DNA of 29,469 nt, from IMG/VR virus record IMGVR_UViG_3300005939_000029, positions 1 through 29,469 of that record, one strand, 5' to 3'. Numbering within the stretch: position 1 is the first letter of the stretch; each line of letters begins with the position of its first letter. Made by a program: the position numbers and the translations under genes. The DNA is from a virus. The notes beneath the pieces are model-generated. The model worked only from the letters and a program-made list of their open reading frames with translations. It was not told the origin of the DNA and searched no databases. Of the stretch, positions 9,035 through 16,243 are shown one piece after another.

Positions 9035-10744
9035 ATGACTACAGCGGACAGGTTCGACGCAGACACCGGGGACCCCGTTTTCCACACTACCTTTCAGGCG
9101 TTCGCGGAGGGGCTGGACGGGAACGGGATCCTCGACGCCGGGGATCTCGCGGTTACAGCGGGGACGAACACGAACGCCCTCGACGTAGCCGCGACGACCC
9201 GCGGGCTGTGGTATGGAGGGACGCTTCACTCCTACGCCGGGGCGACGAACGTCCTCTCCCTCTCCTCGAACACGTCCGGGAGTCCACGGTGGGATCTCGT
9301 CTACTTTGACACGGGGACCTCCTCTCCGGGGAAACGAGAGGGGACGCCCGCGACGAAACCCGACCTCCCGGAACTACAGTCCGGAGAGTTCCCTCTCGCG
9401 GCGGTCTACCTCCCGGACGGAACGACGGACGTAACCGACTCCGACATACGCGACTACCGCGTTCACGGAACCGCGGCGGAGGAGACGTGGTTCGAGGACT
9501 CCCCCGGAGAGTTCTCGTCCTCGACCGTCGAGGGGGCGCTAACGGAGGTTATCCGGGAGGCGGGGGATCCGCTGAACGGACCGCTGGACCTCTCCGGGTT
9601 CTCCGGGTCCGCGGTCCTCGACCTCGGAACGAACCCCGGGACGTTCGGGGCGGTCGTGGACGCTGTGGTAGACGGGAACGACGCCGCGGGAACGGAGGAG
9701 TCGTTCCTGTTCGCGGTGGACTCCACGACAGTCCTAAAGATCTACGCGGAGTCCGACGGGTCGGGCGGCGTTCAGAACCTCCGGGCGGAGGTTCCACAGG
9801 GACTCCGGACCGCGGACGACGTAACGGACGACCGCGGGAACACTCTCTACTCCTACTCGTCTAACGAGTTCACACAGGCGCGTCTCGGAGGTCCAGCGGG
9901 AGCTCTCACGTCCTACCCGCTACCGATAGGGGACCTCGACTCTCCCTACGCCCTCCCGTCCATTACGGATATGGACGTGGACTCTACGGACCTCACGGAC
10001 TCCACGGGTCCGGGAACTCTCTACGACGCGTCCGCGGGTGAGTTCCTACGCGGCGTCCTCGACCAAAACAGGAACACGTCCTCCGTCTCCTCGAACACGA
10101 CTACCTCCGACGAGGAGATCCTGTTCGTAGACACGTCCGGCGGGGCGGTTACTATCACTCTCGCCTCCGCGGACGCGGTGGACGGGAACCACATTATCGT
10201 AGTGGACTCCGGCGGTTCCGCGGACTCTAACCCTCTTACCATAGACACGGAGGGGTCCGAAACGATAGACGGAGTTTCCTCCGTTACCGTGGAAACCGCC
10301 TACGGCGCACAGGTCCTTTCCTCGGACGGGACCAATTGGTTCACCGCGGGCGGCGGATCCGGAGGCGGCTACGACCAAACGGTAGACTTTGACCACTCCG
10401 GGAGTAAGACCTCCCTCTCGACCGGGAATCAGGCGTTAGTCGGAGTCGCGGAGGTGGACGCCTCCGAGACGTTAGAGATCTACAAAGCCCAATTGATGAA
10501 ACCCGACGGAACCGCCTCCTCCACCTCCGTAGACCTCGAACTCGTTACGCTGGATAACGCCGGGTCGTTCACGTCGAGGAGTGTCCTAATCGCCGGGGAC
10601 GGTTCGACCGTCTACGACGACCAAACAGGTAGCCCTCTCGGATCCTACAGCCCGGGATCTACCACGACCGTAGCGGTCCTCGTAGATAATCAGTCCGGGT
10701 CCGCGGAGGGCGTCTACGCGGAGGCGAAAGGGGAGGTCGTCTAA
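9035..10744 (+). CDS. tail fibre/spike protein
   Basis: 569 aa, Ser/Thr/Gly/Asp-rich. Contains 'ILFVDTSGGAVTITL...IIVVDSGGSADSNPLTIDTEGSETIDG...L.SDGTNWF', a module common in tail fibres. Confidence 0.65.
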   Translation: MTTADRFDADTGDPVFHTTFQAFAEGLDGNGILDAGDLAVTAGTNTNALDVAATTRGLWYGGTLHSYAGATNVLSLSSNTSGSPRWDLVYFDTGTSSPGKREGTPATKPDLPELQSGEFPLAAVYLPDGTTDVTDSDIRDYRVHGTAAEETWFEDSPGEFSSSTVEGALTEVIREAGDPLNGPLDLSGFSGSAVLDLGTNPGTFGAVVDAVVDGNDAAGTEESFLFAVDSTTVLKIYAESDGSGGVQNLRAEVPQGLRTADDVTDDRGNTLYSYSSNEFTQARLGGPAGALTSYPLPIGDLDSPYALPSITDMDVDSTDLTDSTGPGTLYDASAGEFLRGVLDQNRNTSSVSSNTTTSDEEILFVDTSGGAVTITLASADAVDGNHIIVVDSGGSADSNPLTIDTEGSETIDGVSSVTVETAYGAQVLSSDGTNWFTAGGGSGGGYDQTVDFDHSGSKTSLSTGNQALVGVAEVDASETLEIYKAQLMKPDGTASSTSVDLELVTLDNAGSFTSRSVLIAGDGSTVYDDQTGSPLGSYSPGSTTTVAVLVDNQSGSAEGVYAEAKGEVV

Positions 10745-11779: not shown

Positions 11780-12564
11780 TGCCGAACTCGGACTACGTGT
11801 TTCAAAGCGGGGAACCCGTCGAGGTCGGACAGGCGGGGGACCACGCCTACGAGTTCGTTTCCGGGAGTCCTCTCGTAGATAGCGGGGCGTCCGAGTTCGT
11901 GTTCGCCTCCGGGACGGGTATCGGGTCGTCCGCTACGGTGATAGACGACTTGGAACGCGGAGATCTCTCTCCCTATATCCAATATGGGGACCAATATGGG
12001 AACCAGAACGACACGAGTATCACGACCTCACCGACTTACGAGGGGACCTACGCTATCGCTATGGTCGGGAGCGATAACGCCCTCGTCTCCTATCCCGGGG
12101 ACGGACTCCCGTATTACCCGGTCCGAGGCGACGTGATAGAATACTATACGTGGTTAAGTAGCGGGAACGATGTGGGCGTAGAAATAGACTTTTGCGTTCA
12201 GGACCACGGGTACAGAAACGAGTATTGGTATGAAGCCGCTCTAAAGAATTTCGACGCGTCTACGAACCCCGGGGGTGTCCACATAGGGAAACGGAAAGGG
12301 GACAGTTTGGACATAGGCCCTATCCGGTCGGGGGACCCGCTACCGTCCGATACGTGGTTACGCTGTAGGATAGAGATAGGGGATCCGACCATAGCCGTTA
12401 CCGGCTATTATCCCGACGGGTCGGGGGGCTGGACCGCGGAGGCGACGGTATCTATGGACGACACGGAGTGGAGTAGCGGCGGGGTCGGGTGGCATACCTC
12501 ACAGTCCGGACAGACGGGCGGGGATATTTACGCGGATTTAGCCCGGAAAACGGGGACCGTCTAA
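11779..12564 (+). CDS. putative receptor-binding/lectin-like tail protein
   Basis: 261 aa, aromatic-rich beta-sandwich-like body after 'IDDLERGDLSPY'; last gene of the tail module. Confidence 0.45.
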   Translation: MPNSDYVFQSGEPVEVGQAGDHAYEFVSGSPLVDSGASEFVFASGTGIGSSATVIDDLERGDLSPYIQYGDQYGNQNDTSITTSPTYEGTYAIAMVGSDNALVSYPGDGLPYYPVRGDVIEYYTWLSSGNDVGVEIDFCVQDHGYRNEYWYEAALKNFDASTNPGGVHIGKRKGDSLDIGPIRSGDPLPSDTWLRCRIEIGDPTIAVTGYYPDGSGGWTAEATVSMDDTEWSSGGVGWHTSQSGQTGGDIYADLARKTGTV

Positions 12565-12576
12565 CGTAGACAGTCT

Positions 12577-12598
12577 TTCGTAGCGAACTTTCTTATCC
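12577..12598 (+). promoter_or_regulatory. putative promoter of the membrane-protein pair
   Basis: CGTAGCGAACTTTCTTATCC, about 25 bp before the ATG at 12621. Confidence 0.45.
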
Positions 12599-12620
12599 GT
12601 TTTACGTTAGGGTTCCCTTA

Positions 12621-13064
12621 ATGGCTGAACCGACAGGGGGAATCGCGATAACGGAGTTTCAGTTAATCGTAGCCCTCCTCGGAGTCGCGGGGACCGCGTT
12701 CGCCGGGTGGCTGTATAGACACGAACGGTGGTTCCGCGACAGGGTATTTCCCGTTATTCAGGTTCTCACGGGAAAGTCCTCGGGCGGGGAGGACGTAGAT
12801 CCGACCTCCGACGGTGGACTCCTCGGAGAGACGGACGACCGACTCACCCGCTTAGAGGAGACGGTCGAGAAAGTCGCGGAGAATCAGGACGAACTACAGC
12901 GGGACGTAAAGGATCTCTCTCGAACACAGAAACGACATAACCGACAGACGGAGGGTTTTCTCCGCCGGATAGCGGGGGCTGTGGACGACGTGGACCTCTC
13001 TCCCGGAGAGGACGAACCGCTGTTCCGAGGAGGCGGCGGACCGGGGAATGGAGGGGGAGACTAA
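12621..13064 (+). CDS. membrane-anchored coiled-coil protein (candidate egress factor)
   Basis: N-terminal TM 'LIVALLGVAGTAFAGWLY' and a heptad-like segment 'DDRLTRLEETVEKVAENQDELQRDVKDL'. Confidence 0.55.
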   Translation: MAEPTGGIAITEFQLIVALLGVAGTAFAGWLYRHERWFRDRVFPVIQVLTGKSSGGEDVDPTSDGGLLGETDDRLTRLEETVEKVAENQDELQRDVKDLSRTQKRHNRQTEGFLRRIAGAVDDVDLSPGEDEPLFRGGGGPGNGGGD

Positions 13065-13480
13065 TGTCCCGGGACGGGCTGAACGCCTCGGACTACGTGT
13101 TTTCGGAGGACGGACTCCCGGCGTGGGTCCCCGCGTTCCTCCGTCGGGTTCTCCTCGACCTCACCTACTGGGAGTTTCACGCTATGGAACTCGGACTCCT
13201 CGGACTGTTCGCCGGGGCGGGCGTCCGCCTCGGACTCACGGAGTGGGTAGCGTTCGGGACCGCGTTCCTCGTCGGGACCTCGTTCGGGTTCCGGCGTCTC
13301 GACCCGGACCGGATCCCGTCGTTCGAGGGAGACGGGGTTCTCCGCGCCCTCGTCCACCTCGTCGCGGGGACCGCGGAGAACATAGCCTCCCGAACCCTCG
13401 GACGGGAACCGTGGTATTTCCTCGTCGTCTACGTCCTCACGACTACCGCGGCGTGGATCTCCTACCCGGTTCTCGCCTAA
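13064..13480 (+). CDS. small multi-pass membrane protein (holin-like candidate)
   Basis: 138 aa with 2-3 hydrophobic segments; TAATG-coupled to the previous gene. Confidence 0.5.
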   Translation: MSRDGLNASDYVFSEDGLPAWVPAFLRRVLLDLTYWEFHAMELGLLGLFAGAGVRLGLTEWVAFGTAFLVGTSFGFRRLDPDRIPSFEGDGVLRALVHLVAGTAENIASRTLGREPWYFLVVYVLTTTAAWISYPVLA

Positions 13481-13505
13481 CGTGAAACGGATTTTCACGG
13501 TAGCC
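13481..13505 (-). promoter_or_regulatory. palindromic site, copy A (inverted relative to copies B-D)
   Basis: CGTGAAA-CGGAT-TTTCACG followed by GTAGCC. The reverse complement GGCTACCGTGAAAATCCGTTTCACG matches the copies at 14147, 14246 and 14345. Confidence 0.8.
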
Positions 13506-13588
13506 CCCGTTCGGTAGCGGCGGGTCCGTCGAGATCTATCCCGGTCCAGCCCGTCGAGGCGGTGGGACGGACCGGACGCTAACCTGTC

Positions 13589-13610
13589 GTAGTGAGTCGG
13601 TAACTATAAG
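13589..13610 (+). promoter_or_regulatory. promoter-motif copy pointing at the hairpin cluster
   Basis: GTAGTGAGTCGGTAACTATAAG resembles the recurring TAG..CCGGTAAC-TATA motif. Confidence 0.5.
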
Positions 13611-13634
13611 ACGGTTCACTTGAAACCATACCCG

Positions 13635-13780
13635 TATGCCGTTAACACCGTGGGCGACGACAGCGGGGGCGTCGCCCTAAAGGGCGTATCTCCCGGAGGG
13701 AGGAGACGCCCGGGGCGACTCCCCGCGGAGTCGCCCGGGCTACGCGTTCGACTGAACAGGAGGACGCGGACCGCGGACGA
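13635..13780 (+). ncRNA. putative structured small RNA with three GGGCG/CGCCC-closed hairpins (ends approximate)
   Basis: Stems at 13652-13677, 13682-13711 and 13713-13736 lie downstream of a promoter motif. Only a 14-codon ORF (13636-13680) is present. Confidence 0.4.
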
Positions 13781-13784
13781 GATC

Positions 13785-14417
13785 TTATTCTAAGAACGAG
13801 AGGGCGTCCGAGGCTAACAGGCGGAGGTCGTCGTTCTGGATAGCGATAGAGGCGGGGCGTCCGTCCTCGACCTCGACCACTCCGGCGTCCCGGAGGTCGT
13901 GGACGTGGTTCTTTACCGTCCTCGTCGTCGTCTCCGTCCACTCCGAGAGGTGGGAGTAGGTCGTCGTCCCGTTCTGGACGAGACACGCTAAGATCCCGCG
14001 GCGGGTCGGTTCTCCGAGGGCTACCATACACTCCCGATACTCGTCCCGGTAACGACGACGGAGACGTTCGACGGAGACGACCGTCTCGACGGACCACTCC
14101 TCCCCGCATATCTGGACCTGTCCACGGAGGGGGCGGTCCTCCCCGTGGCTACCGTGAAAATTCGTTTCACGGTTCGAGTGTTCGGGTCCACACACAGCGT
14201 CCGCCTCTCCCGGGGGACGCTGAACGCGGTCTACTCCTCCCCCGTGGCTACCGTGAAAATTCGTTTCACGGTTCGAGTGTTCGGGTCCACACACAGCGTC
14301 CGCCTCTCCCGGGGGACGCTGAACGCGGTCTACTCCTCCCCCGCGGCTACCGTGAAAATCCGTTTCATCATAGCGTCCGGTTCTGTCGTCTAAGTGTTGG
14401 TGGCTTTCTGAACTCAC
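13785..14417 (-). CDS. ArsR/SmtB-type winged-HTH protein with an N-terminal 33-aa repeat (start uncertain: GTG 14417 or ATG 14027)
   Basis: C-terminal 'ALGEPTRRGILACL...TYSHLSEWTETTTRTVKNHVHDLRDAGVVEV' fits ArsR-type HTH. A GGAGG lies upstream of GTG 14417 and a promoter at 14461-14484. Confidence 0.7.
   Translation of the reverse strand: MSSESHQHLDDRTGRYDETDFHGSRGGGVDRVQRPPGEADAVCGPEHSNRETNFHGSHGGGVDRVQRPPGEADAVCGPEHSNRETNFHGSHGEDRPLRGQVQICGEEWSVETVVSVERLRRRYRDEYRECMVALGEPTRRGILACLVQNGTTTYSHLSEWTETTTRTVKNHVHDLRDAGVVEVEDGRPASIAIQNDDLRLLASDALSFLE
14141..14367. repeat. 99-bp tandem repeat, 2.3 copies, each carrying the palindrome CCGTGAAA-N5-TTTCACGG
   Basis: Palindrome cores start at 14152, 14251 and 14350 (exact period 99). 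Copies 1 and 2 are identical; copy 3 is partial with two substitutions. Confidence 0.95.
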
Positions 14418-14460
14418 GTCGAGGTCCCTCCTACGGGTAGCCTACCGCTACGGAGGAGGG

Positions 14461-14484
14461 TCTTAAAAAGTTACCGGAGGCTAC
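14461..14484 (-). promoter_or_regulatory. leftward viral promoter motif driving the wHTH ORF
   Basis: Minus strand reads GTAGCCTCCGGTAACTTTTTAAGA, just after the stop of 14491-14973. Confidence 0.65.
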
Positions 14485-14490
14485 GGCGTA

Positions 14491-14973
14491 TTAGCGAAAC
14501 AGGTCCCGCTTAGTCCACTCCGTAACGTCCCACTTTCGAACCGCGTCCTCCCGGGCTGGACATTTCTGTGTGTCCGTCCGGATCTCCCTCCCTGTGTCGT
14601 CGTCGTAGTGGGTCCAGTCATACTCCGCGGTAGTGTCCGCTGTGTATTGGTCCAGCGTGAACTCGTAGAGGGTCTTTGTGTCTCTCTCGTAGACGAGGAC
14701 GAGTTCCACCTCCTCGAATTGAAGGTTAGAGAGGACGGGGAGGCTAATCGGGTAGGAGTCGAATTTCCTAAACAGGTTCGCGTCCGTCGTCCGGGTCGTC
14801 CGGTAGCCCTTAATCTCCCGTTTCTCCTCGTCCCCGCGGTTATAGACCACTACGAGGTTCCCGATTTTGTGGTTCTTATACGGGTGAGGGACGGGACGCG
14901 CTTTCCGGATCTGTGGGGGCGCGTCGAACTCCGGTTCCTCCTGTGTGTCGGTAAAGTCGTCCAGCGTAGCCAT
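14491..14973 (-). CDS. hypothetical viral protein
   Basis: 160-aa acidic ORF with genome-typical codon usage and its own promoter motif at 15011-15033 (-). Confidence 0.7.
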   Translation of the reverse strand: MATLDDFTDTQEEPEFDAPPQIRKARPVPHPYKNHKIGNLVVVYNRGDEEKREIKGYRTTRTTDANLFRKFDSYPISLPVLSNLQFEEVELVLVYERDTKTLYEFTLDQYTADTTAEYDWTHYDDDTGREIRTDTQKCPAREDAVRKWDVTEWTKRDLFR

Positions 14974-15010
14974 TTTCTAATCTCCTCGTAGGGTCGTATC
15001 ACTCGTTCCA

Positions 15011-15060
15011 ACATAATGTTACCGGATGGCTAATACGCGTTTCGTCCGGTATCTTTAAAC
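15011..15060. promoter_or_regulatory. back-to-back divergent promoters
   Basis: Minus strand TTAGCCATCCGGTAACATTATG (15011-15033); plus strand TCGTCCGGTATCTTTAAAC (15042-15060), about 24 bp before ATG 15084. Confidence 0.6.
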
Positions 15061-15083
15061 CGTCCGTAGCCCTTATCTCCGGT

Positions 15084-15956
15084 ATGTCCACAGTCACGGA
15101 ACGGAGTAAGGACCCGGAGGCTATCGCCTCGGAGCTCGGACTCCCGGATCTCGTCGGACGAACAGCCCGCGTCTACCTCGACCGCCTCGAACAGGAGGAC
15201 TATCAGATCCCCGCGGACGCCCGGACCTACCCGGCTATCGTTTACTACGCGTCCCGGGACGAGGGCGAACCGTTCACCGCGGGAGAGGTAGCGGAACAGG
15301 CGGGCGTATCGGAAACCGCTGTTTCCCGGGAGTTCCGGCGTCTCGTAGACGCCCTCGGACACACCCCCGAACACGCGGATCCGGAGGCGTTCCTACAGCG
15401 GTTCGGGAACGAACTCTCCGCCTCGACGGAGACGGTGAACACAGCCCTCGACCTCTACCGGGAGGGCGCGGACACGGGGCTGTTCTCGAACCGGACGCCC
15501 GCGGTCGTCGCGTCCCTGTGTCTCTACGCGGCGTCCACCCTCACGGACGACGACCTCACACAGGCGGACTTTGAGGAGTTCGGCGTCTCGCGGACCTCTA
15601 TCCGGAAGGGCTACAAAACGGTTCTCTCCCTCCGCGGGGAGGAACAGTCCTCCGGTAAGATCTCCGAGGGCGACGCCGCGGACCGTCTCCGGGAGGCGGT
15701 CGAGGCTATCCACTCCGAACTCTCGTTCCCGGAGGTCGTTCTGGACGCCGCCCTCGAACGCGTCGAGGAGGTAGCCGGACAGGAGTGGGTCCGCGGTAAG
15801 TCCGCGGGTCCTATCGCCTCCGGGATCTACTGGATAGCCGCGGACGAGAACCGTATGGTCCTCTCACAGGGGGACGCCGCGGACGCCGCCCCCGGGAACG
15901 TCCACAAAGTCACGGTGAACCGTCGCGTCGCGGCTATCCGGGACCACGCCTCGTAA
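15084..15956 (+). CDS. tfb: TFB/TFIIB-like protein with three cyclin-fold repeats and no Zn ribbon
   Basis: 'IASELGLP...VYYASRDEGEPFTAGEVAEQAGVS', 'DPEAFLQRFGNEL...GLFSNRTPAVVASLCLYAAS...TQ' and 'IHSELSFP...GKSAGPIASGIYWIAA...VTVNRR' each match TFB core repeats. Confidence 0.85.
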   Translation: MSTVTERSKDPEAIASELGLPDLVGRTARVYLDRLEQEDYQIPADARTYPAIVYYASRDEGEPFTAGEVAEQAGVSETAVSREFRRLVDALGHTPEHADPEAFLQRFGNELSASTETVNTALDLYREGADTGLFSNRTPAVVASLCLYAASTLTDDDLTQADFEEFGVSRTSIRKGYKTVLSLRGEEQSSGKISEGDAADRLREAVEAIHSELSFPEVVLDAALERVEEVAGQEWVRGKSAGPIASGIYWIAADENRMVLSQGDAADAAPGNVHKVTVNRRVAAIRDHAS

Positions 15957-16243
15957 TGTCCGAGACTGTTCACGACCTCCGGGGACAGATCTCGCGGGCT
16001 GTGGGGATCTCCTCGTCGCCCTCCGGGGCGTTTCGTAAAGACGACCTGAACGTTATCCTCTCCACCCTCGGAGGAGACGCGCTGGACGCCGCGGAGGTCT
16101 ACGGGTGGGACGCCCCGCCTAAGTCGTGGTTCTACGAACAGGTAGCGGCGGAGGCGGGGTTCGACTACGACCCCGGAGAGGGAGATAACGCCCGCCCGTT
16201 CAATCGGGGCGAACTCCTCGACCTCCTCGACGCTGTTCAGTAG
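15956..16243 (+). CDS. hypothetical protein
   Basis: 95 aa, TAATG-coupled to the TFB-like gene. It has two related halves ('AFRKDDL..IL' and 'PFNRGEL.DLL'). Confidence 0.7.
   Translation: MSETVHDLRGQISRAVGISSSPSGAFRKDDLNVILSTLGGDALDAAEVYGWDAPPKSWFYEQVAAEAGFDYDPGEGDNARPFNRGELLDLLDAVQ

Follow-up and report, generated by a model that had tools for sequence, protein, structure and literature searches.

Four copies of an interrupted palindrome were found in and directly downstream of a single gene in a linear virus record of 29,469 bp (IMG/VR record IMGVR_UViG_3300005939_000029, positions 1 to 29,469). This whole stretch of DNA is referred to below as the window; its completeness was estimated at 28%. 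The tail tube homologue encoded at 1900-2919 had 44% identity to that of Haloarcula hispanica tailed virus 2 (HHTV-2), indicating that an uncultured haloarchaeal siphovirus is the source of this fragment. The gene in question encodes an ArsR-type winged helix-turn-helix (wHTH) protein and contains three of the four copies. On balance, the element is probably the cognate operator dyad of this protein, which would bind it as a dimer and likely regulate its own gene. The element was conserved at the level of nucleotides, its arrangement around the gene recurred throughout the protein family, and its dyad symmetry was maintained by paired changes; from these patterns we infer that the wHTH protein is the probable binder and what its binding would do. 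The features of the gene and its sites were as follows.

13785..14417, minus strand: ArsR-type winged-helix gene, 210 aa, with a GTG start at 14417
14462..14476, minus strand: promoter of the wHTH gene resembling a B recognition element (BRE) and TATA box, CGGTAAC followed by TTTTTAAG, from an alignment of the spacer between the wHTH gene and its upstream neighbour ORF160 at 7 loci
13479..13505, plus strand: non-coding inverted copy (dyad 13479-13501, AGCC flank 13502-13505), adjoining the TAA stop codon of the last tail-module gene
14345..14371, minus strand: in-gene copy 1, encoding Y-D-E-T-D-F-H-G-S, with imperfect arms GATGAAA / TTTCACG
14246..14272, minus strand: in-gene copy 2, encoding N-R-E-T-N-F-H-G-S, a perfect 8-5-8 dyad
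14147..14173, minus strand: in-gene copy 3, an exact duplicate of in-gene copy 2
14137..14367, no strand assigned: tandem repeat, 99 bp and in frame, 2.3 units (Tandem Repeats Finder score 441, 97% matches)

A sequence-only reading of this DNA had placed the copies at 13481-13505 (inverted), 14147, 14246 and 14345, and all four were recovered. When up to 3 mismatches were allowed, the dyad search returned 4 matches against 0.07 expected, and 0 of 100 shuffled sequences reached 4. These were the only copies of TGAAA-N5-TTTCA in the 29.5 kb even with one mismatch, so the scan for more sites in the window yielded no further full dyad. In-gene copy 1 and the non-coding copy were identical over 23 nt. 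The 8-5-8 geometry ascribed to the element held for copies 2 and 3, but not for the non-coding copy (7-5-7) or for copy 1, whose perfect arms were just 5 bp. The wHTH gene had its own BRE/TATA sequence and a GGAGG ribosome-binding sequence (about 14426-14431) before its start, both conserved in relatives, and therefore the in-gene copies, 50-280 nt into the open reading frame (ORF), all lie in translated sequence. The earlier view that three sites stand between the promoter and the DNA-binding domain is to be corrected in that all three are translated. Isolated CGTGAAAC half-sites were present outside the dyads at 214, 8473, 13174 and 26742, and the total of 7 such half-sites against 0.76 expected was a mild enrichment. 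The half-site at 13174 (minus strand) read TAGCGTGAAAC, resembling the left half of the relatives' non-coding copy. A GTCGAGATC motif at 13526-13537, approximately 25-35 nt past the non-coding copy, was conserved in L006, L009 and L010.

The in-gene copies were not independent of each other, as they lay within the 99-bp in-frame tandem repeat. Its first two units were 100% identical, and a single perfect in-frame duplication of 99 bp gave rise to two of the three copies. In other metagenomes, near-identical genomes carried either two in-gene copies (L005, L254, L255 and L257) or three, as in the window (L253), indicating that the third copy is a recent duplication, a copy-number polymorphism that adds one dyad and 33 residues. 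In the near-identical 44.9-kb contig L005, two single-base deletions in G and C homopolymer runs (10001-10110) shifted the N-terminal 25 codons to another frame, and the called protein started at an ATG inside copy 1; the DNA dyads were intact despite the frameshift. These deletions may be a sequencing error or a real variant. The contigs of L030 and of L068/G001 (G001 being a related virus record of 42 kb, judged 82% complete) ended inside the wHTH gene, near the repeated element. Such ends are probably assembly breaks at repeats, real genome ends being the alternative.

In homologues at 55-80% identity, whose N-terminus was otherwise variable, the peptide (H/R)ET(D/N)FH(G/V/D)S occurred in two or three copies, every one of them encoded by the same underlying nucleotides. 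The codons of the element were rare in the window genome (GAA 24%, GAT 12%, TTT 25%, AGC 6%, GGT 9% and CAT 8%), and the probability that one copy would use them was approximately 2e-4. The wobble bases of the element were fixed while the residues varied, with R, H, D and Y all drawn from NNT and G, V and D from G-N-T; across the same loci, invariant residues of the HTH domain were encoded by 3-4 synonymous codons. The non-coding copies had the same sequence as the in-gene copies. The rare codons, the fixed wobble bases and the non-coding copy together indicate that selection acts on the nucleotides of the element and not on the peptide. A change from His to Pro in the peptide was observed because an A to C change in the right arm mirrored a T to G change in the left arm, and the conserved "peptide motif" is most likely nothing other than the translation of a DNA signal. 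Several 4-mers were strongly avoided in the 29.5 kb (CTTC 4, GAAG 10, GAGC 5, GCTC 5, CATC 2 and GATG 9 occurrences) and codon choice followed this avoidance, Asp-Phe being GAC-TTT in 14 of 15 cases; the avoidance probably reflects evasion of host restriction sites. Avoidance of CTTC, GAGC and GATG was rejected as the cause of the rare codons, since elsewhere in the window Asp-Phe was never encoded by GAT-TTT (0/15) and Glu-Thr was GAA-ACG in only 5 of 59 cases.

When 33 copies of the element from 14 loci were aligned, the consensus was A-N-C-R-TGAAA-N5-TTTCA-Y-G-N-T, followed by AGCC, an asymmetric flank on one side of the dyad only. The consensus arms were 10 bp long, with positions 1, 3 and 5 from the outer end loose. 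The bases GAA, TTTC and the flanking G22, T24 and G26 were invariant in all 33 copies. Pair 6-20 was T-A in 25 copies and G-C in 5, with 3 exceptions, and the A2-T24 pair was kept in 32 of the 33; pairs 3-23 and 5-21 were mostly mismatched. The covariation score was 0.082 versus 0.054 for shuffles, and 14 of 500 shuffles scored as high. In L013, each copy was symmetric within itself, though its two copies differed from each other. The symmetry fits a dimer and persisted through sequence change, as seen at pairs 6-20 and A2-T24. The arms were conserved, the central spacer was variable, and the conserved outer contacts were interrupted by loose positions, a pattern that fits a DNA dyad read by a protein better than an RNA stem. 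An RNA duplex between two copies was rejected, since each copy was symmetric alone while copies differed and the spacers varied more than the arms.

Residues of about 1-98 of the wHTH protein, which carry the dyads in their coding sequence, were predicted to be disordered, and residues of about 100-210 comprised a dimerisation region and the wHTH. HTH_20 (PF12840) matched residues 134-184 with 27.5 bits, barely over the cut-off of 27, and NF033788 (NCBIfam) matched with E 1.4e-8 and 34.4 bits, below its cut-off of 55. A family profile searched against PDB matched PH1932 (1uly, E 1e-4) and an ArsR protein (3f6o, E 7e-4). The likeness to ArsR/SmtB regulators (PH1932, 1uly; PF12840) would lie in the borderline wHTH profile match and the predicted symmetric dimer; unlike these regulators, the viral protein has a disordered N-terminal extension of about 95 residues and an NCBIfam score below the cut-off. 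The His residues of the N-terminal motif were not conserved across the family. A homodimer model of residues 95-210 scored 0.79 against 0.02 for the best control and was symmetric, with a predicted local distance difference test (pLDDT) value of 91, and three runs shared at least 97% of contacts. The C-terminal region is accordingly predicted by modelling to be a symmetric dimer; the mark used was reached by 20 of 30 proteins solved as same-chain pairs and by 1 of 23 solved as single chains, and the pass may reflect likeness to ArsR dimers that were already solved. The first residues of the recognition helix were R-T-V-K in representatives with TGAAA/TTTCA (25) and R-T-V-R in those with GGAAA/TTTCC (8), and Arg with TTTCC was confirmed on DNA in L259, L260 and L262. 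This covariation of Lys/Arg with the dyad is suggestive, and the pairing of Arg with G is chemically sensible.

Among 1.84 billion representative proteins, 135 family members were identified by a profile search, of which the distant ones kept just a degenerate E-x-x-F-[H/P] peptide. The DNA of five distant members (L259-L263, 30-45% identity) was examined, and each contained the dyad within the gene.

L259: in-gene dyad GGAAA..TTTCC, 1 in-gene copy, 1 inverted copy past the stop codon
L260: in-gene dyad GGAAA..TTTCC, 1 in-gene copy, 1 inverted copy past the stop codon
L262: in-gene dyad GGAAA..TTTCC, 1 in-gene copy, 0 inverted copies past the stop codon
L261: in-gene dyad CGAAA..TTTCC, 1 in-gene copy, 1 inverted copy past the stop codon
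L263: in-gene dyad TGAAA..TTTCA, 2 in-gene copies, 2 inverted copies past the stop codon

In all these copies Glu was encoded by GAA and Phe by TTT. In L259, L260, L261 and L263, an inverted non-coding copy with the matching lineage-specific dyad was located 20-300 bp past the stop codon. Including these, an inverted non-coding copy was observed downstream of the wHTH gene in L005, L006, L009, L013, L015, L030, L253-L257, L259, L260, L261 and L263. The layout, with direct copies in the gene and an inverted copy after it, is kept in the four distant relatives that have the downstream copy, indicating that it is ancient. In L259, L260 and L261 the downstream copy did not follow a convergent gene, which indicates that the layout is independent of the tail operon; on the same ground, a tail-operon terminator was rejected as the role of the downstream copy. 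The dyad of L260 at 2036-2068 was a perfect 8-3-8 palindrome (CAGGAAAG-N3-CTTTCCTG) and the most symmetric version found. The scan of relatives therefore showed the element to be conserved (33 copies from 14 loci, plus the same layout at 30-45% identity). The proposal of the sequence-only reading that the dyad suits a dimeric wHTH, with inverted repeats flanking and inside its gene, gained support from the nucleotide conservation, the family layout, the dyad covariation and the predicted homodimer.

If the element is the operator of the wHTH protein, protein and sites would form a self-contained cassette. Its direct copies (one to three, at 50-280 nt within the ORF) and its inverted copies (one or two, at 20-300 bp beyond the stop codon) together enclose the part of the gene encoding the DNA-binding domain. 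A dimer bound at these sites would limit its own synthesis, either as a roadblock to RNA polymerase during elongation or by drawing the two clusters of sites into a loop. Protection of the gene from converging tail-operon transcription may be a second effect of the downstream site in the window clade and L263. Site and gene remain linked across large evolutionary distances, a pattern to be expected of a cognate pair, and autoregulation would be the most economical function. A lambda-like switch was not borne out within the 29.5 kb, where no other promoter had a copy of the dyad; a master switch acting on early or late promoters was likewise without support, given that no full dyad occurs elsewhere in these 29.5 kb.

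Several observations count against an autoregulatory operator. The one-sided AGCC flank and the constant inverted orientation would not be accounted for by a symmetric dimer. The downstream copy was absent in L010, L012 and L262 and is hence dispensable. Archaeal repressors usually act at the TATA box or the transcription start, and sites 50-280 nt inside an ORF are unusual. The AlphaFold2 monomer model of the full-length protein was poor (pLDDT 46). With respect to the recognition helix, representative P0033 had Lys with an asymmetric dyad (TTTCC), and the Lys/Arg correlation rested on approximately 3 changes on a poorly resolved tree, with 1 independent pair on well-supported branches, and was not significant. 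Finally, with the window about 28% complete, there may be more sites elsewhere in the genome.

Some of the alternatives involve the gene directly upstream of the wHTH gene.

14491..14973, minus strand: ORF160, matching phrog_13033 (E 3e-18), directly upstream of the wHTH gene

Across the family, the wHTH gene was immediately preceded by an ORF160-like gene, for which hhalign gave 97% in L263 and 96% in L259. The ORF160 model had a pLDDT of 81.5, and its fold matched just PD-(D/E)xK nucleases (PvuII Z 5.5, Hjc Z 5.4, NhoI Z 5.3, also D212), all weakly; the Foldseek match was also weak (E 5.6e-3), and the catalytic D...(D/E)xK motif was not established. No PADLOC or NCBIfam match was obtained for ORF160, and its protein-atlas feature matches were all below 0.9. 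Judged from these models, a nuclease-plus-regulator module is possible. As a minority possibility, the cassette and its nuclease-like partner would be a portable cis/trans module with a genome-level function (replication initiation, end processing or exclusion) and not a simple autoregulator. The site and the recognition helix would then co-evolve, and tandem duplication would alter site number and protein length together.

It is fairly unlikely that the same protein-site pair serves a cis-acting genome function, as an origin with in-gene initiator sites, a packaging site or a centromere-like site. The 29.5 kb contains no dyad outside the cassette, and such self-containment is typical of initiator-origin, small terminase-pac and ParB-parS pairs; the partner gene has a weakly nuclease-like fold. 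The sequence-only reading had remarked that no initiator, helicase or polymerase was visible, and none was recognised among the ORFs scanned. The wHTH protein itself matched replication initiation proteins of PHROG (E 0.002 and 0.009); however, these matches were weak and covered the generic wHTH alone. An iteron origin inside its initiator gene, as had been suggested, was not supported, since no AT-rich unwinding region was found (GC content was 50-78% in 60-nt windows over 13441-14520, and none of the nine 60-nt windows with the least GC in the whole stretch fell there) and the repeats were not closely packed. The copies were spaced 96-111 bp apart and numbered 1-3, several lineages having a single in-gene copy. 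Further, no partition ATPase adjoined the cassette, which lies between the tail and early modules and not beside the terminase genes.

Action of the element in RNA, as a hairpin with a U-run serving as attenuator, terminator or protein-binding hairpin, is unlikely. Copies 2 and 3 folded as 9-bp hairpins (-11.4 kcal/mol, z -2.8), the element would have the same sense in the wHTH mRNA and at the 3' end of the convergent tail-operon mRNA, and a change from T-A to G-C would also keep an RNA base pair. TTTTC fits the terminator motif of a T-stretch followed by C in Haloferax volcanii (PMC7237163), and AGATC, reported as a termination motif in the same species (PMC7237163), was present after the non-coding copy. 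However, an A-C mismatch occurred at pair 5-21 in 20 of the 33 copies, so that many copies cannot form the stem, and several, such as L009 copy 1, did not fold as a hairpin. Pair 3-23 was mostly unpaired, though the outer pairs 2-24 and 4-22 were conserved, and the AU-rich inner stem never co-varied. The element was also absent at every other operon end in the window, and in L259 and L260 its downstream copy has no convergent gene before it to terminate.

A very unlikely explanation is that a two-gene module of nuclease-like protein and wHTH has the dyads as its targets or control sites, whether it is toxin-antitoxin-like, restriction-controller-like or a wHTH-guided nuclease; in the first two forms the disordered N-terminus of the wHTH protein would bind the partner. 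In the window clade, L068, L259 and L263, the ORF160-like gene immediately preceded the wHTH gene, and the two overlapped in L259 and L260; a long disordered arm joined to a DNA-binding dimer is found in many antitoxins. The fold matches of ORF160 were all to PD-(D/E)xK nucleases, though with Z of 5.5 or lower they are in a range often found for unrelated proteins, and the searches of PADLOC and NCBIfam gave nothing for it. Such a module would include autoregulation by the wHTH protein, and thus extends the operator reading rather than replacing it.

Three further explanations had next to nothing in their favor. Site-specific inversion, in which the inverted copies are crossover sites parting the HTH-coding part from the promoter and N-terminus (phiCh1 undergoes int1-mediated inversion), would agree with the inverted orientation, the 23-25 nt of identity between copies and the asymmetric spacer, but is hardly credible: all of about 20 independent contigs had one orientation, the tyrosine recombinase domain PF00589 was absent from the window record (G000) and from the 82%-complete G001, and copies within a genome differed most in the spacer, which crossover sites need identical. 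There is scarcely any chance that the conserved feature is the peptide (H/R)ETDFHGS, acting as a linear motif or a metal site and appended by stop-codon readthrough to the last tail-module protein; the motif is rich in His, Asp and Glu, and in the window, L006, L009 and L013 the reading frame continues past TAA or TAG straight into the non-coding copy, but synonymous sites were frozen while residues varied, His became Pro exactly when the opposite arm changed, and the copy was out of frame in L015 and not after a convergent gene in L259, L260 and L261. Origin recognition boxes (ORBs) for host Orc1/Cdc6, also raised in the sequence-only reading, are extremely unlikely: GTGAAAC is loosely like the ORB core and the asymmetric sites are in inverted arrangement, but the dyad differed between lineages of the viral wHTH, the downstream G-run was not conserved, no AT-rich region was present, and no Cdc6_C domain was found in the window record or G001, both of which are incomplete.

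The genes around the cassette were arranged in modules. Tail-module genes occupied the plus strand to 13480, followed by the minus-strand pair of the wHTH gene (13785-14417) and ORF160 (14491-14973). From 15084, the plus strand carried a TFB-like gene, then Hjc and a weak PCNA-like match (PCNA_N E 0.01), whose syntenic gene in L009 had a precomputed PCNA_N match. Two features lie on the plus strand facing the wHTH gene.

13064..13480, plus strand: last tail-module gene, 138 aa, hydrophobic, its stop codon adjoining the non-coding copy; the tail-module label depends on the tail tube homologue at 1900-2919
13598..13780, plus strand: promoter (13598-13611) and, from 13624 to 13780, a structured small RNA that converges on the wHTH gene

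In the small RNA at 13624-13780, between the inverted copies, approximately 36 pairs were predicted, of which 10 showed compensatory changes; Rfam gave no match to it. A covariance model found it in the window clade and L262 (E 1e-22), with no match in L259, L260, L261 and L068 and only a weak one in L263 (E 0.045). Membership of the small RNA in the core cassette was rejected, as it is absent from distant relatives and restricted to the clade. A CGGTAAC box directly 5' of the TATA box was common to the promoters of the wHTH gene, ORF160, the TFB-like gene and the small RNA (13598, 14462, about 15010 and about 15045), and this box was conserved in relatives. No tRNAs were found in the window, an Rfam search of 12500-15500 returned nothing, and neither did a scan for bacterial-type promoters and terminators. 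Nothing in a cultured-phage collection matched 13000-16000 at the DNA level or the wHTH protein by tblastn. Protein-based IMG/VR scans with the wHTH protein and ORF160 gave no relatives, and ORF436 and ORF417 had no sequence relatives in PDB.

Small dimeric winged-helix proteins that act through interrupted palindromes are known from haloarchaeal viruses, namely SNJ2 Orf4 and the phiH1 repressor, of which the latter is thought to autoregulate (PMC10123103). The protein studied here resembles them as a small winged-helix viral protein, predicted to be a dimer, associated with interrupted palindromes. Compared by description only, their palindromes lie in promoters, by the TATA box or upstream of the start codon, whereas those of the window lie in the ORF and past the stop codon; unlike in SNJ2 and phiH1, other promoters of the window carried no site, and an integrase was not found. 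Intragenic auxiliary operators that act with looping include lac O2 in lacZ and gal OI in galE. These also are operator copies within coding sequence, distant from each other so that a loop is possible, but they sit in regulated target genes, whereas the copies studied here sit in the regulator's own ORF and without a promoter-proximal primary operator. Sites within the gene of their own binder are also known, parS lying within spo0J and the lambda origin within gene O. Like the wHTH sites, they are co-inherited with the binder and constrain coding sequence at the DNA level; unlike them, the cassette had neither a partition ATPase nor an AT-rich unwinding region, and its copies were not closely packed as iterons are. 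In the literature searched, the combination of sites within the part of the ORF encoding a disordered N-terminus, an inverted copy past the stop codon, apparent covariation of site and protein and a copy number altered by in-frame duplication was not described for an archaeal virus.

Gene regulation in tailed archaeal viruses is almost uncharted. The cassette offers both a protein and the DNA site that it probably recognises, along with putative specificity variants occurring in nature (Lys/TGAAA and Arg/GGAAA), and with these in hand protein-DNA recognition and regulation are therefore directly testable. It also calls for caution in annotation, as a conserved "peptide motif" in a disordered region can be a translated DNA signal. 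With the 99-bp polymorphism, the number of sites and the length of the protein could be changed in one step.

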